A DNA stretch of 64,000 bases, taken from the NCBI GenBank assembly GCA_003144275.1, contig NJBF01000020.1, forward strand, positions 9,481 through 73,480, read 5' to 3'. A program made the position numbers and the translations under genes. Within the stretch, counting starts at the first letter, position 1; every line of letters begins with the position of its first letter. Source of the DNA: Candidatus Heimdallarchaeota archaeon B3_Heim. GTDB taxonomy: Archaea; Asgardarchaeota; Heimdallarchaeia; Hodarchaeales; Hodarchaeaceae. The notes beneath the pieces are model-generated. The model made no database searches. It was given only the letters and a program-made list of their open reading frames with translations, and was not told the DNA's origin. Shown piece after piece: positions 32,451-49,890 of the stretch.

Positions 32451-32951
32451 TGGTCATTCCACGTTTTTATTTTGTTTCAACGCCGATATACACTTTGTCG
32501 GTGATTAAAGTACCGAGTAAGTGTTCTCTTATTTTACCTCTAAATTCTTTCCTAAGTGTAAAAACGGACTCAATCTTTCGAATTCAAACCAGAATAAATA
32601 AATTCTCAAATAAATGTATTCGATGAATTTAGACAATTAAAAGAACCTTTTTATTCACAAAAACTTTGTAATTCTTGTTTTTTCGCTCTTAACTCTGATT
32701 CAATTAAATCAAGTTTATTCAATTATTCATTAAAAGGATTAAAAGAGAATAATAATATGCTTAAATTCAAGTTTCTCGAATAAAGGGAATTAGAATGATT
32801 TAAATATGGAATTACACATGTAATAATCGAATGAAATCAAAATCGCTCTCATATGGTTTTGTTGTCTGTTGAATTCCTAATCATAAACGTTTAGTACATT
32901 AAATAATTAACAGGGAAAGAAAGCAATATTAAAGAGATAGAGGCTTAATTT

Positions 32952-33671
32952 TTGGCTTTACTGACAAACATATTAACAAAATGGTTTAAAAAACCAGCTG
33001 AACCAACAGAAAAGGAAATGATTAAAGATTTCATTCAAGAACTTGACTCTGTCCTAATATCTATGGAAGAAATGACAGAAGATATGACAAACGGTTTTAG
33101 CGACCAGGTAATTCAACGACGACCACTCTCGACAAAACTCATGGCTTATTTACCGAAATTTATGCAATCTAAAAATACTCGATCCCAAAATGAGAAATTA
33201 ATTGAATTGAAGAATACAAAACAGAAAATGCGTACATTAAGGGGAACATTATCTAAAATTGATGAATCTGTTGATTCAATGGATCTCCATGCTGCTCCCC
33301 TTGAGGGAGAAGAGGTCGGGAGTAGAATTTACGAGCTTGCCTATCCTGGAGAGACAATAACCTCTTCAAAAGTGAGAACATTAGAGGAAAGGCTGCAAAT
33401 GCTTGAAAATTCGTTTTTAGCTTCAATGGACCAAATAAATGGGCAGATGAATCAGATATCATCAAATTTGCTAACACTAACTCAAAGACTTGAGGAACAA
33501 GGGGTAAAAATAGACCGTATTGATGAAAAAATTACCGATGTTCAATCAAAATTACAAAAAATCCAATCTACTTTGGCAAAAATATCTCGGAAACTGACTC
33601 AAAACAGAACACTATTAGCACTTTTGGTTGGGTCTGTAATTGCTCTCGTGATTGTCATAGTCATCCTTTGA
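32952..33671 (+). CDS. Tail-anchored coiled-coil membrane protein with SNARE-like layer architecture
   Basis: An uninterrupted heptad register of about 17 hydrophobic layers is broken by a single core-position Gln (LEEQGVK, nt ~33497). This is followed by a short basic linker (RKLTQNR) and a TM helix that ends the protein. Confidence 0.3.
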   Translation: MALLTNILTKWFKKPAEPTEKEMIKDFIQELDSVLISMEEMTEDMTNGFSDQVIQRRPLSTKLMAYLPKFMQSKNTRSQNEKLIELKNTKQKMRTLRGTLSKIDESVDSMDLHAAPLEGEEVGSRIYELAYPGETITSSKVRTLEERLQMLENSFLASMDQINGQMNQISSNLLTLTQRLEEQGVKIDRIDEKITDVQSKLQKIQSTLAKISRKLTQNRTLLALLVGSVIALVIVIVIL

Positions 33672-33808
33672 GCGTAAAAGAATACTGAAAATGTTAGTTA
33701 AAATGAGACCCCAGAAAATATAAGAAAAAGAATATAAGGAATAAGGAAAATAAGGATTGTTGAGTGGAAGAATGAATAGAAGGTTAAACAGAATTAGGTG
33801 AAGACTGG

Positions 33809-34282
33809 ATGCAACAAAGAGACGAAATACACCGCGAGTTAACTCGTCTATTAAAAAGTGATACATCAATTAAAGTGACTTTACTAGGTGATAGAACAGG
33901 TTTAACGATTGCTAGAGCCTCAAGACTATTAGTATCAGCAACTATGGGAGCATTTGATCTTGAAAGTATTGGAGCGATTGCTTCTGCGGTGTTTTGCGGC
34001 GCAGCAGAACAAGGAAGTGCCTTAACTCTTGGGGAGCTTGGTATTATGTTGGCTGAATTCACTGATGGCAAAATATTGACCGCTCAAAGTGGAGAAAGAG
34101 GAGTTTTAGTAGTAGTCGCAGAATCAGATGCTCAATTGGGGTTGATCCGAATGCGGATGAAAGAATCATCAGAGTCGTTAGCCTCACTCATGGATAGATT
34201 AATAGAGCCATCTGCCGTTAAAATGAAGAAACCCGAATCTCAATCAATAATGGCCGCACTTAAAGAACTCGAAAACTTTTAA
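33809..34282 (+). CDS. Roadblock/LC7 (MglB-like) domain protein
   Basis: IKVTLLGDRTGLTIARAS, MGAFDLESIGAIASAV and GVLVVVAESDAQLGLIRMRM match the Roadblock alpha-beta-beta-alpha-beta pattern. Confidence 0.55.
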   Translation: MQQRDEIHRELTRLLKSDTSIKVTLLGDRTGLTIARASRLLVSATMGAFDLESIGAIASAVFCGAAEQGSALTLGELGIMLAEFTDGKILTAQSGERGVLVVVAESDAQLGLIRMRMKESSESLASLMDRLIEPSAVKMKKPESQSIMAALKELENF

Positions 34283-34377: not shown

Positions 34378-34989
34378 GTGCCTTATTCCCAACTAGATGA
34401 CGTTATTTTGAAGTTAACTGATGAAGTTACGGTTCAAGTCCTAAATATTTTATTAGAAGAAAGAGAAATTATTGATGAAGACATTGTGAATATTCTAAAT
34501 GAGGGATTGGATCAAGGGAATCAAGAGACTGAGGCCCCTGAAGAAAACAATATTCCGAGGATTGCTCTCAAAGAAGTCAGAAAATCACTATATAAATTAA
34601 ATGAAAGATCTCTCGCAAGGTACCGACGAGTACGTGATAAAGAAACGGGTTATTTTGTATATTACTGGTCACCTATTTGGGAAAGGATTCGAGACTTAAT
34701 TGTCAGTCGTCGGAAGCAAACAATAAAGAAATTGAAGCAACGCTTAGACTATGAACAACGAAACCTTCTTTATGTGTGTGAAGAAGGACATACACCAGTT
34801 ACTTTTTCTGATGCATTTGAATTTGGATTTTTATGCACCGTCTGTGGACAAGAACTTGCTCAAAAGGAGAACGCAGAGACAATTGCAATTCTACAAACCA
34901 AGATAACCGAGCTAAAAAAGATTCTCAAAACAGGTTTAGAAGAAATAGAGGGGATTGAAGAGAGAATGGAAAAGGCTGTCAACAGCTAA
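34378..34989 (+). CDS. tfe: Transcription factor E (TFIIE-alpha homolog)
   Basis: Winged helix LKEVRKSLYKLNERSLARYRRVRDKETGYFVYYWSPIWERI. Zn ribbon YVCEEGHTPVTFSDAFEFGFLCTVCGQEL. Confidence 0.65.
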   Translation: MPYSQLDDVILKLTDEVTVQVLNILLEEREIIDEDIVNILNEGLDQGNQETEAPEENNIPRIALKEVRKSLYKLNERSLARYRRVRDKETGYFVYYWSPIWERIRDLIVSRRKQTIKKLKQRLDYEQRNLLYVCEEGHTPVTFSDAFEFGFLCTVCGQELAQKENAETIAILQTKITELKKILKTGLEEIEGIEERMEKAVNS

Positions 34990-37365: not shown

Positions 37366-38328
37366 GTGATATATATGACGAAAGCTTTTGAAGTTCAAGA
37401 TCTACGAAATTTAAGAGAAGAAATCGTACAACTTCGTGATCAAAAAGCTGATTTACTCAGTAATCTCCGAAAATTGGAAAAAGAGCGAAATCAAAAACGT
37501 GAAGAGAGGGATAATCTCAATAAGTTGGCATCTGAGAATTTCGCTAAAGTAAGAGGATTAAAGGATCAACGCGATAAAAATAACCGTTCAATCCAAGAAT
37601 TAAAAGCAGTTCGTCGTAGCGTTCTTGAAGAAATGAAGGAGCTTATAGAAAAAGCCAAATCCTTACAGGAAGAGATAGTATCAATGGATATCACGGAGCA
37701 GGATATCAAAAAATCTTACAGTCTTCGAAAACGCATTGATAGTTTAGATTGGAAAATACAAACAACTTCCAGAATGGGGATTGCAGAAGAACGACAACTA
37801 ACTGAGCAAGTGAATATGTTAATGGAGCAATTGGGTGACATCTCTGTATCTACTGAAAAGCTTAAGGCGCGAAAAGAAATAAATAGGGAAATTAACCATC
37901 TTAGAGGCTTTTTAGATCATAGTTGGAAAGACTTCCAAGAATTAGTGGAGAATTCCCAGAGGTCACACCAAGAATTAACCGAACTCTATGATACTGGAAA
38001 AAAAGCAAAAGATGAAGCTGATACCTGTCATAAATTATTCTTGGAGAGAGCAGATGAAATACGAACTCTTCGGGATGAATTCCGTGGGTTGAATAAATCA
38101 CTGAGAGAAAAATCTAGTATCTTTAGAGAACAAAATCGTGCCCAAAAAGAACGTGTTCAGCTTGAACGAGAAAAAGCTAGTGCTGAAATACTAGAAGAGC
38201 AAAAAGCCATTATTCAGGAGAAATTAAGCTCCAAAAAGAAGAAAGTCTTGTCTATTGAAGAAATGCGAATAATGATGAGTCAAGATCCAGATTTTTTAAG
38301 TAACGATGATGTTCTTGAAGAAGAATAG
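37366..38328 (+). CDS. Highly charged coiled-coil protein
   Basis: 320 aa. E/K/R/Q-rich heptad repeats throughout. No TM. Confidence 0.3.
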   Translation: MIYMTKAFEVQDLRNLREEIVQLRDQKADLLSNLRKLEKERNQKREERDNLNKLASENFAKVRGLKDQRDKNNRSIQELKAVRRSVLEEMKELIEKAKSLQEEIVSMDITEQDIKKSYSLRKRIDSLDWKIQTTSRMGIAEERQLTEQVNMLMEQLGDISVSTEKLKARKEINREINHLRGFLDHSWKDFQELVENSQRSHQELTELYDTGKKAKDEADTCHKLFLERADEIRTLRDEFRGLNKSLREKSSIFREQNRAQKERVQLEREKASAEILEEQKAIIQEKLSSKKKKVLSIEEMRIMMSQDPDFLSNDDVLEEE

Positions 38329-47697: not shown

Positions 47698-48333
47698 TTA
47701 TTTAGAAATAGGATTAATAGCTTCATTTGTTTGGTAACGTTCATAAACTTTTTCAACATAACCAAACTCTTCAATTAGTTCATGAATTCTTGTCGATTCA
47801 ATATAGATTTCAGAGGTCCATAAAATCAAGTACGCAGTAATCATAGGCAATTGAGGGGTAACTGATTCCTGTATTTCAAATAGGATCTGTTTACGTAGAG
47901 CGAGCTCTGTTTCATACATATCAATTATTTCTCGAATGGTATTTTCAGCTTGATCTATAATCTCTAAATCATGAGGCCATTCATTATTATCTTTTACTGC
48001 TCGATTTTTCGCTGGTTGAAGAATATCACAACGAAAGCTCTGTTCTATTTTTCTCATCTCGCGAATTACATCTTTAAAATGAGTTAAATAAGCATTCAAT
48101 TCGGTGATATGCCTATTGATAGATTCTGCGAGATTATAAGCTAGTCTGCCCTGAACGTCATCAAACTTAGTCTTTATTACTTCGGAAAAGACATCTGATC
48201 TTTGAGTCAGGTTAAATCGTGATAAGATATTGAGTACCATGTTTACAGTTCGTAACGACTGGCCTTGAACGGTGGTCCACTTTTTTTGAGAGATTTGTAA
48301 CCTCTTTTTAAAGACCCGAATGCTCTGACTCAT
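47698..48333 (-). CDS. Hypothetical helical protein
   Basis: 211-aa ORF with no recognisable motif. Confidence 0.25.
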   Translation of the reverse strand: MSQSIRVFKKRLQISQKKWTTVQGQSLRTVNMVLNILSRFNLTQRSDVFSEVIKTKFDDVQGRLAYNLAESINRHITELNAYLTHFKDVIREMRKIEQSFRCDILQPAKNRAVKDNNEWPHDLEIIDQAENTIREIIDMYETELALRKQILFEIQESVTPQLPMITAYLILWTSEIYIESTRIHELIEEFGYVEKVYERYQTNEAINPISK

Positions 48334-48489: not shown

Positions 48490-49890
48490 GGGACTGATAA
48501 GAATAATCAAGAAGAATTATTCGAAACAACCGTTGGAGCTGTTCTTCCTGATTCATCGACGCGTGCCTGCTCTGATGCAGGTCTTACCACCTCTCCACAG
48601 ACATTTAAGGTCTCCGCAGAACTCTCGGCGACCGGAAAGAGTAGGAACTGATAGATAGTATAATAATTAGCAACATTACGGGCAGCGTTCTGATCACGAT
48701 CTAATGCCAACCCGCATAACGGGCAATGAAAAATCCGATCAGCTAACGTCAGATCACGACGGTAATAAAGGCAATTCGAGCATAATTTCGAGGAAGGAAA
48801 CCAGCGATCGATCTCAATCACCTTAGAGCCATATAAGGGCGCCTTATATGCGAGGAAACGCTGAAACAGACCATGTGAAAGATCGGCCCAATATTTACTC
48901 AGCTTCTTATTTTGCATTAATCCTTTGACATGTAAATCCTCGGTAACTATCACGCTGTGGTTTTTAGCCAGATAAGTTGAGGTCTGATGCAAAAAATTAT
49001 GCCTTTGGTTGGTGATTCGACGATAGAATCGCGCTAAGCGGAGGGCAGACTTCCGTTTATTATTTGAGACGTTCTGTTTCCGAGAATGAACTTTTGATAA
49101 TCGATCCTGTTTTCGAGCTTGACGGAGGAGGAATTTGGGACGAGTGATAGGTATTCCCGAAGATAACGCTGTAAAGACGGATAAGCCTTTATCCAGGGCA
49201 ATAATTGGGCCATCGTTTGGGTTACAATCTGGTTGTACCTCTTTTACCGTAAGAGCCACATACCAGCGATCCGCAGTCCGAGAAACCGTGACACTCAGTA
49301 TCCGTGCTGATACAGGTAAATTTGGCCTTTCTTTTAACCGTAATTTACCTAAGCGAGGTAATTGCACCTGTTTTACCTTTTGAAAAAGATGAATCACTCC
49401 AGTCAATCGAAAGCTGTCCTTACACTTGCCTTTTTTCTTGAAAATGGGTAAGCCGATATAACGGGTGGTTTGCTTCCGTTTTATTTGTTGATGATTGGTG
49501 AAGAAATTCTGATAGCCACGATCTAAGTCGCGGAGTGCCTCTTGCGGGACACATTTCGAAACCTCATACATCCAAGGAAAATCTGTTAGTTTCAAGCGAT
49601 TTAATTCTTTATGCTGTTTCATAGCATCGGTATAGCGAGCAGCACCTGCTCGCGTTCGATAACGCGATTTCCGATTGGCTAATCCCCAGTTCCAGGCAAA
49701 TCGTGATATACCTGCATATTTGGTCAGTAGCGTCCGTTCTTTGTTATTCACTGTTAATTCGTACTTGTATCCTCGTGTACGGAGCATCCCTGACCATCCT
49801 TACTTAGACCCACTATCAGAACCTAGCAATACTGATTGATTACGCGTTTTTCTTCTTATAAACCTACTAGGCCACGTGATCTAAATCAAA
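48490..49890 (-). mobile_element. IS200/IS605-family insertion sequence (TnpB-only, IS1341-like). GC-rich relative to its flanks
   Basis: Sharp compositional shift to GC-rich sequence from about 48500 to about 49885, bracketing a complete tnpB. The exact ends and hairpins are not resolved. Confidence 0.55.
48507..49787 (-). CDS. tnpB: TnpB (IS605 OrfB) RNA-guided endonuclease-family transposase accessory protein
   Basis: OrfB N-terminus YKYELTVNNKERTLLTKYAGISRFAWNWGL. RuvC-I IALDKGLS, RuvC-II VIVTEDLHVKGL, zinc finger CSNC...CPLCG, RuvC-III DRDQNAARNV. Confidence 0.85.
   Translation of the reverse strand: MLRTRGYKYELTVNNKERTLLTKYAGISRFAWNWGLANRKSRYRTRAGAARYTDAMKQHKELNRLKLTDFPWMYEVSKCVPQEALRDLDRGYQNFFTNHQQIKRKQTTRYIGLPIFKKKGKCKDSFRLTGVIHLFQKVKQVQLPRLGKLRLKERPNLPVSARILSVTVSRTADRWYVALTVKEVQPDCNPNDGPIIALDKGLSVFTALSSGIPITRPKFLLRQARKQDRLSKVHSRKQNVSNNKRKSALRLARFYRRITNQRHNFLHQTSTYLAKNHSVIVTEDLHVKGLMQNKKLSKYWADLSHGLFQRFLAYKAPLYGSKVIEIDRWFPSSKLCSNCLYYRRDLTLADRIFHCPLCGLALDRDQNAARNVANYYTIYQFLLFPVAESSAETLNVCGEVVRPASEQARVDESGRTAPTVVSNNSS

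Follow-up and report, generated by a model that had tools for sequence, protein, structure and literature searches.

We analysed a 64,000-nucleotide stretch of DNA from Candidatus Heimdallarchaeota archaeon B3_Heim (assembly GCA_003144275.1, contig NJBF01000020.1, positions 9,481 to 73,480 of the forward strand; hereafter the window), focusing on a gene that encodes a tail-anchored protein with a heptad motif like that of Q-SNAREs. The protein is HPS1 ('Heimdallarchaeota prototypic SNARE'; PWI47941.1, CEE45_09200, Ca. Heimdallarchaeota archaeon B3-JM-08), which was reported and tested in vitro by Neveu, Khalifeh, Salamin & Fasshauer (bioRxiv 10.1101/810531; Curr Biol 2020) and proposed in 2019-2020 as a possible forerunner of eukaryotic membrane-fusion proteins (bioRxiv 10.1101/810531). 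An earlier note on this DNA, made from the letters alone, had read the protein as having the architecture of a Q-SNARE, which is also the published interpretation of the same protein. The observation is a correct rediscovery of a published result; it is already known and, because the protein is the HPS1 of Neveu et al., not new. On balance we lean towards the reading that the heptad motif of this tail-anchored protein forms parallel, Q-SNARE-like bundles in which a glutamine layer sets the register. The similarities described below support the term 'SNARE-like'; that HPS1 is a SNARE is unproven, although homology to SNAREs is plausible.

Identity and architecture of HPS1

The protein encoded in the window is identical to PWI47941.1 at 238 of 240 aligned positions, the comparison being made with the supplement text of Neveu et al. 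as read by machine, in which one obvious O-for-Q misreading was corrected before alignment. Both residual differences look like machine-reading errors, and one of them, a dropped Glu, occurs in only one of two printed copies. The gene and its parts are as follows.

32940..32943, + strand: possible ribosome-binding site GAGG, 8 nt 5' of the HPS1 TTG, read from the sequence
32952..33671, + strand: HPS1 gene, encoding the tail-anchored SNARE-like protein; 239 aa, TTG start (open reading frame list)
33009..33278, + strand: N-terminal helical domain, aa 20-109; AlphaFold2 helices 20-54 and 74-109, predicted local distance difference test (pLDDT) 75-90
33330..33353, + strand: conserved YELAYPGE motif, aa 127-134, between the N-terminal domain and the heptad motif
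33426..33584, + strand: SNARE-like heptad motif, aa 159-211, layers -7 (M159) to +8 (I211), from the register and the family alignment
33498..33500, + strand: codon CAA of Q183, the single polar core residue ('zero layer')
33585..33608, + strand: basic juxtamembrane linker SRKLTQNR, aa 212-219, from sequence and conservation
33609..33668, + strand: C-terminal transmembrane helix TLLALLVGSVIALVIVIVIL, aa 220-239, from sequence; conserved in all homologues

The start position is supported by the homologues, which begin at the same residue, and by conservation of the N-terminus from residue 1. At the other end the stop codon directly follows the transmembrane helix, which is why we regard this helix as a tail anchor. 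The earlier note had also described a basic linker followed by a terminal transmembrane helix, and an unbroken 3-4-3-4 register with a single glutamine in the core, and both descriptions hold exactly. The a and d positions of the first half are F155, M159, I162, M166, I169, L173, L176, L180 and Q183, and those of the second half are I187, I190, I194, V197, L201, I204, L208, I211 and L215. These 18 core positions, 17 hydrophobic and one Gln, follow strict 4-3 spacing without interruption from F155 to L215. A SNARE-type core of 16 layers over about 53 residues is therefore accommodated by M159-I211, with F155 and L215 flanking it. The fragment expressed as 'HPS1' in the published work comprises aa 159-211 (Figure 1 legend, bioRxiv 10.1101/810531), which coincides exactly with layers -7 to +8 of the register read here.

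Conservation across an enlarged HPS family

In 2019 the family comprised four sequences, the published homologues being those of LC_2 (HPS2, OLS22354.1), LC_3 (OLS23218.1) and one further metagenome-assembled genome (MAG; bioRxiv 10.1101/810531). A word-indexed search now returns 67 clusters of full-length homologues of the Hodarchaeales type, at 54-97% identity and nearly all of 239 aa. Seeding with the published LC_2 and LC_3 sequences reached distant subfamilies and brought the total to 93 clusters, labelled Heimdallarchaeota, Hodarchaeales or Kariarchaeaceae, with a few that carry other Asgard labels but show the same synteny. A scan of GTDB representative genomes recovered close relatives only (18 loci, 57-96% identity), the distant subfamilies needing the LC_2 and LC_3 seeds, and an exhaustive HMMER scan of 1.84 billion representatives gave 24 representatives of the family at E<1e-10. 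Clustered at 90% identity, the family now has about 90 clusters, a number that falls to about 24 when 50% is used; it is large and still confined to Heimdallarchaeia.

HPS2 of LC_2 and OLS23218.1 of LC_3 belong to subfamilies other than that of HPS1. Both are full-length homologues of the same length (29% identity to HPS1 over the full length for the LC_2 protein, here P0147, which was retrieved at E 3e-71, and 36% for the LC_3 protein) and share the EQG[VI] core, the linker and the tail anchor. The LC_2/Kariarchaeaceae type differs from HPS1 in having a Lys-rich N-terminal extension and in lacking both the YELAYPGE motif and a Roadblock gene as neighbour.

Conservation was assessed in an alignment of 37 sequences that are 24-88% identical to HPS1. 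Register positions are 94.3% hydrophobic, against 11-54% in the six other phases, and the 17 hydrophobic layers remain hydrophobic throughout with a single Thr as exception. Position 183, whose conservation in orthologues the earlier note had singled out as decisive, is Gln in 36 of the 37 sequences and His in the remaining one, and ranks 13th among 239 columns. The best conserved block reads L-[DE]-E-Q-G-V-x-[LI]-x-x-I-D-x-K, with G184 at least 90% conserved. In the linker, KLTQNRTLL is invariant in 32 sequences of the Hodarchaeales type; across the family S212 never varies, and conservation reaches 90% or more at T216, N218 and R219.

Two proteins carry His in place of the zero-layer Gln, P0160 (locus L019, 4001-4723) and P0097, with the sequences DEHGV and GEHGV; P0097 stands outside the count of 36 in 37. 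Separately, P132, G133 and E134 of the YELAYPGE motif are invariant in two family alignments, which holds for the LC_3 type as well as for Hodarchaeales; in the LC_2 protein the corresponding residues read AIPGE. AlphaFold2 confidence is low at this motif, which might be a binding site.

Similarity to SNAREs and the coiled-coil background

HPS1 aligns co-linearly with real SNAREs. Its alignments to three SNARE types, represented by VAMP2, P0129 and syntaxin-6, are ungapped, place Q183 on the zero layer in each case and continue through the linker and the transmembrane helix. First, VAMP2 (3hd7_A) is the best single-sequence match in a phmmer search of the PDB: residues 156-238 of HPS1 align ungapped over 83 columns, through the transmembrane helix, with Q183 on R56 (E 0.002; the E-value worsens to 0.057 with a narrow family profile). 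Second, a diverse family profile finds syntaxin-6 (2nps_D) as its best natural match (rank 2, E 1.9e-4), ungapped over 58 columns and with Q183 on the Gln of EEQAVML. This agrees with the published analysis, in which syntaxin-6 is the human SNARE closest to the archaeal proteins (bioRxiv 10.1101/810531). Addition of divergent relatives strengthened the SNARE signal, the E-value for syntaxin-6 being 0.14 with the narrow profile, and by manual count SNARE chains make up 26 of the 60 best PDB sequences with the diverse profile, most of them SNAP-25 variants.

Third, P0129 came from the weaker matches of the exhaustive scan and is a Qa-SNARE (PF05739, 53 bits; PDB matches to syntaxin-1A, Tlg2 and syntaxin-7), with a C-terminal sequence that we take to be like that of syntaxin-5/Sed5. 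Comparison of HPS with P0129 by hhalign gave a probability of 95.4% (E 2e-8, score 60.8) over 82 ungapped columns, with Q183 on Q232; this Q232 (DQGQKLDRID) in turn aligns on the Gln of syntaxin-1A VESQGEMIDRI.

Eukaryotic Q-SNAREs, namely syntaxin-6 (Qc), the Qa-SNARE P0129 and the N-terminal motif of SNAP-25, share with HPS1 the 16-layer heptad in which the zero-layer Gln is followed by Gly. Common features of Q-SNAREs and HPS1 are Q-G-x-x-[IL]-D-R-I-D, a short basic linker, a tail anchor and equal spacing between layers and transmembrane helix. VAMP2 (synaptobrevin), an R-SNARE, differs in having Arg rather than Gln at the zero layer and no N-terminal helical domain. HPS1 departs from Q-SNAREs in scoring below curated thresholds, in having no assignment to Qa, Qb, Qc or R and in having two long helices predicted in the N-terminal domain in place of Habc, and a published screen found one HPS gene per genome as against the four SNARE types of eukaryotes. 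In the published analysis the archaeal SNARE-like proteins branch outside Qa, Qb, Qc and R, and the authors' own SNARE hidden Markov models gave the archaeal proteins 'moderate e-values' only (bioRxiv 10.1101/810531).

Several results weigh against a SNARE assignment. The earlier note had proposed a check with SNARE profiles, and HPS1 does match PF05739, PF00957 and PF12352 at E ~1e-3; its scores of 19.3, 19.2 and 19.5 bits nevertheless all lie below the respective cut-offs of 26.8, 26.4 and 27.1. PF05739 is matched by 23 of the 37 relatives at E<=0.01, with a best family E-value of 1.6e-5, but no family member reaches the Pfam gathering score for SNAREs. The Pfam SNARE matches of the family are scattered over SNARE, V-SNARE_C and Synaptobrevin, and generic coiled-coil families (DUF1664, DUF7310, COG6_N, Snapin) are matched about as often. 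Among ten weaker matches of the exhaustive scan that were checked on Pfam, P0129 (E 4.8e-4) is the one bona fide SNARE, the other nine being generic coiled coils or small HPS-like fragments. As a bridge to eukaryotic SNAREs the scan is therefore statistically unconvincing, with a single SNARE among generic coiled coils. Three non-SNARE tail-anchored coiled coils used as hhalign controls reached probabilities of 63-87% and scores of 37-42, so the 95.4% obtained with P0129 is not to be taken at face value and its margin over background is modest. Finally, 17 stretches of P0093, a repetitive coiled-coil protein of 2716 aa, match the heptad region of HPS (E 1e-22), and this protein passes the cut-off of V-SNARE_C as well as those of NPV_P10, DUF7310 and Laminin_II. 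Such profiles are thus unspecific, and repetitive coiled coils can exceed SNARE thresholds.

These points bear most directly on the possibility that HPS1 is a generic tail-anchored coiled coil, its resemblance to SNAREs convergent and its role that of a membrane scaffold or tether without part in fusion. Parallel membrane-proximal coiled coils need a/d layers in any case, and register or oligomeric state is commonly fixed by a polar residue that is buried and conserved. Generic tail-anchored families (DUF1664, DUF7310, XhlA) likewise place a coiled coil before a C-terminal transmembrane helix and have comparable sub-threshold scores. With neither family profile is a SNARE the top PDB match: the narrow profile ranks a viral phosphoprotein, a designed coiled coil and reovirus sigma-1 highest, and the diverse profile still puts a designed coiled coil first. 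We nevertheless consider convergence unlikely, if a serious contender. The three ungapped alignments agree on the zero layer and on the distance to the membrane, and HPS1 shares the local motif E-Q-G-x-x-[IL]-D-x-I-D with P0129 (DQGQKLDRID) and syntaxin-1A (SQGEMIDRI). In hhalign the bona fide SNARE leads the best control by about 18 score units, and the generic examples that were retrieved (P0104, P0121, P0124) are unlike HPS1 in being built from short repeat units (RLDKVEQ, RFDKV) and in scoring 37-42 against 61.

Published binding to neuronal SNAREs also argues against a generic coiled coil. In vitro, HPS1 formed new complexes on native gels with syntaxin-1 and SNAP-25 (or separate SNAP-25 helices), and also with syntaxin-1, synaptobrevin and one SNAP-25 helix (bioRxiv 10.1101/810531). 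On the other side, these heterologous complexes were described as 'not very stable' and were less stable than the neuronal complex (bioRxiv 10.1101/810531). A search for later work returned only papers that cite the 2020 study, with no structure and no in vivo follow-up in the literature searched. In architecture HPS1 answers to a SNARE, and the statistics give a 'perhaps'; the similarity of HPS to SNAREs stands above the coiled-coil background, by a margin too small to prove common descent.

Predicted structure and mode of assembly

An AlphaFold2 monomer of HPS1 (model m56e817c1c6de) was built from the 37-sequence alignment, with a mean pLDDT of 68 and a predicted TM-score of 0.60. Its long helices span residues 20-54, 74-109, 138-182 and 190-220, the first two of which bear out the helical N-terminal domain anticipated in the earlier note. 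In three respects the model sits poorly with a Q-SNARE. The N-terminal domain, in a prediction of moderate quality, consists of two long helices and some short ones rather than a three-helix Habc bundle. Foldseek comparison of the model with the PDB gave nothing at E<=1e-3 and no syntaxin, the best matches being non-significant and to designed four-helix bundles. Third, residues 183-189, directly after the Gln, are non-helical, and the motif folds back on itself into a four-helix bundle, with a block pLDDT of 84-87 around the break. A Habc-type bundle is typical of Q-SNARE subtypes but not obligatory.

The break at Q-G could reflect a closed, auto-inhibited state, a true hairpin or an artefact of single-chain collapse. 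If it is a hairpin, the chain would turn at the invariant Q-G that follows layer -1, and HPS1 would be a closed four-helix bundle on the membrane, either constitutively or auto-inhibited in the manner of closed syntaxin. The high conservation of G184 and the designed bundles among the Foldseek matches fit this idea, as does the model of the LC_2 homologue, which has the same layout (helices 139-184 and 191-240) and a break at 185-190 after Q184. That model is no independent confirmation, because it rests on essentially the same alignment as the HPS1 model. Mean pLDDT is only 64-68 in the two models, and the heptad register crosses the supposed turn without a phase shift. Long amphipathic helices are prone to pack against one another in single-chain AlphaFold2 predictions, and real Q-SNAREs that carry a zero-layer Q-G are continuous helices in solved complexes. 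We therefore regard a hairpin as improbable.

The Q-SNARE-like reading that we favour suggests the following mode of action. The basic linker would place the N-terminal 219 residues in the cytoplasm, with the last 20 residues spanning the membrane. Next to the membrane, 60 or so residues would make up one amphipathic helix, whose a/d core consists of 16-17 hydrophobic layers and a single Gln that is buried and strictly conserved. The analogy with Q-SNAREs makes it most likely that such helices join in a parallel bundle, with the register set by the polar layer. As the bundle zips up towards the anchor, the membranes that bear the anchors would be tethered or drawn together, so that HPS1 may act in fusion or tethering in the cell. 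The bundle is probably homo-oligomeric, because only one such gene turned up in each genome of the published screen (bioRxiv 10.1101/810531).

We also observed a Kariarchaeaceae MAG with two genes of the family, encoding P0157 and P0170 (ACXAC2_01305 and ACXAC2_10655), of which P0170 is a 148-aa N-terminal fragment. The pair is either a case of paralogy or a sign of mixed strains in the bin, and it bears on whether HPS assemblies are homo- or hetero-oligomeric.

The Roadblock gene and its neighbourhood

Two further genes follow HPS1 on the same strand.

33809..34282, + strand: Roadblock/LC7 gene (MglB-like, MP1/LAMTOR3-like), 157 aa, 137 bp 3' of HPS1
34378..34989, + strand: TFE (TFIIE-alpha) gene, Pfam PF02002, 43.3 bits

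The earlier note had recognized the Roadblock/LC7 gene 137 bp downstream, and the assignment stands: PF03259 scores 28.0 bits, above its cut-off of 23, and PF08923 scores 22.5 bits, below its cut-off of 25. PDB sequence matches at E 1e-6 to 1e-3 include 9jue_D (1.2e-6), MglB (6h5b_B, 1.7e-5) and archaeal Roadblock proteins, so that the protein resembles MglB and archaeal Roadblock-LC7 proteins in having Robl_LC7 above cut-off and in matching MglB and 7yh1. The last of these belongs to the entries that accompany an Asgard study (Tran et al. 2024, PMC10933270). The Roadblock protein of the window is also extended at its C-terminus by about 40 conserved residues, the last of which read ALKELENF. 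The two intergenic regions inspected contain AT-rich, TATA-like stretches and no clear oligo-T terminator; inspection of promoters and terminators leaves co-transcription undecided.

Every Hodarchaeales locus long enough to show it, 17 of 17, has the order SNARE-like gene, Roadblock, TFE, with identities of 57-96% for the SNARE-like protein, 85-99% for Roadblock, which is by far the most conserved of the three, and 68-99% for TFE. An LC_3-type contig keeps the order at lower identity (HPS 33-35%, Roadblock 54%, TFE 40%), TFE is also syntenic in locus L024, and in LC_3 itself the SNARE-like and Roadblock genes have the consecutive locus tags HeimC3_25590 and HeimC3_25600. The pair is thus retained down to about 33% HPS identity. 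Two observations limit what this means. First, those Hodarchaeales genomes share synteny over the whole block, which takes in TFE, a polyprenyl synthase, a HAD hydrolase and a DUF7121 protein, so the adjacency of HPS and Roadblock is not specific. Second, the two are uncoupled in other Heimdallarchaeia: in the LC_2 and Kariarchaeaceae types, HPS lies beside other genes, with no Roadblock gene among them, and locus L025 has a Roadblock-TFE pair without a SNARE-like gene. The adjacency is therefore not evidence of a functional link, and after comparison of synteny at three depths we rejected it as such; it is best read as lineage-specific synteny of Hodarchaeales. A 142-aa gene upstream of HPS in LC_2, considered as a possible Roadblock gene, proved unrelated.

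More distant homologues of the Roadblock protein have a different setting. In locus L026 (2688-4659; JOHN19-1_SAMN10217873_METAG-scaffold_1, ERZ23491057), a LAMTOR5-like Roadblock gene, a Roadblock gene whose product is 46% identical to that of the window, an Arf/Ras-type GTPase gene and another Roadblock gene lie together. It is in strings of this kind that the Roadblock family usually occurs, in contrast to its setting in the window. Locus L027 (1951-6114; WJIK01000119.1, a Heimdallarchaeota MAG) contains an SMCR8_C-like gene, an MP1/LAMTOR3-like and a LAMTOR5-like Roadblock gene and a weakly Yip1-like gene, and from these matches it looks like a gene group of the trafficking or GTPase-regulator type. 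Unlike these clusters, the Roadblock gene of the window has no small GTPase gene within about 10 kb, and neither a cognate GTPase gene nor a second Roadblock gene, as in a module of the MglA/MglB or Ragulator type, was found at 12-52 kb of the window. The neighbours there are housekeeping genes, among them genes for histidine degradation, glutamine synthetase, an S8 protease and GrpE-DnaK-DnaJ.

It is very doubtful that HPS and Roadblock of Hodarchaeales form one membrane module, whether a proto-Ragulator-like platform or an arrangement in which Roadblock controls the opening of a closed four-helix HPS. Retention of the pair in divergent relatives, LC_3 included, speaks for such a module, whereas the occurrence of the genes apart in other Heimdallarchaeia argues against an obligatory link. 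Least probable of all is that HPS1 serves as membrane anchor or scaffold for the adjacent Roadblock dimer, like LAMTOR1 in Ragulator, with the coiled coil a docking rod rather than a fusogen: the constancy of the gene pair and the very strong conservation of a Roadblock protein that matches the MP1/LAMTOR3 family PF08923 are set against synteny of the entire block, separate occurrence of both genes, distant homologues that sit beside GTPase and other Roadblock genes instead, and an intergenic distance that varies from about 115 to 460 bp across Hodarchaeales loci.

Other genes in the window

Within the syntenic block, the DUF7121 protein (37366-38328, + strand; 320 aa, 38 bits against a cut-off of 29) is a coiled-coil protein that is not tail-anchored. 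Farther along, a gene on the - strand (47698-48333) encodes a 211-aa protein that matches PF15011, 'C1orf109-like ribosome biogenesis protein', at 42 bits (cut-off 27, E 1.2e-10). This family is, to our knowledge, eukaryotic, and the Asgard genome may thus encode a eukaryotic signature protein here. It adjoins a mobile element of the TnpB / IS605 OrfB type (48507-49787, - strand) with HTH_OrfB_IS605, OrfB_IS605 and Cas12f1-like TNB domains.

Implications

Membrane fusion in the eukaryotic endomembrane system has SNAREs as its core machinery, and where they came from is a question of eukaryogenesis. What the present analysis adds to the 2020 paper is modest: an enlarged family, rare His variants of the zero layer, the Roadblock/TFE gene order and the break at Q-G in the AlphaFold2 models. 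The coiled-coil controls run here leave the statistical case for homology to SNAREs marginal, and the Roadblock adjacency is now seen as synteny of one lineage. A conserved, tail-anchored protein of Heimdallarchaeia with SNARE-type layers is nonetheless the best current candidate for a pre-eukaryotic SNARE, a case that was made for HPS1 in 2019-2020.

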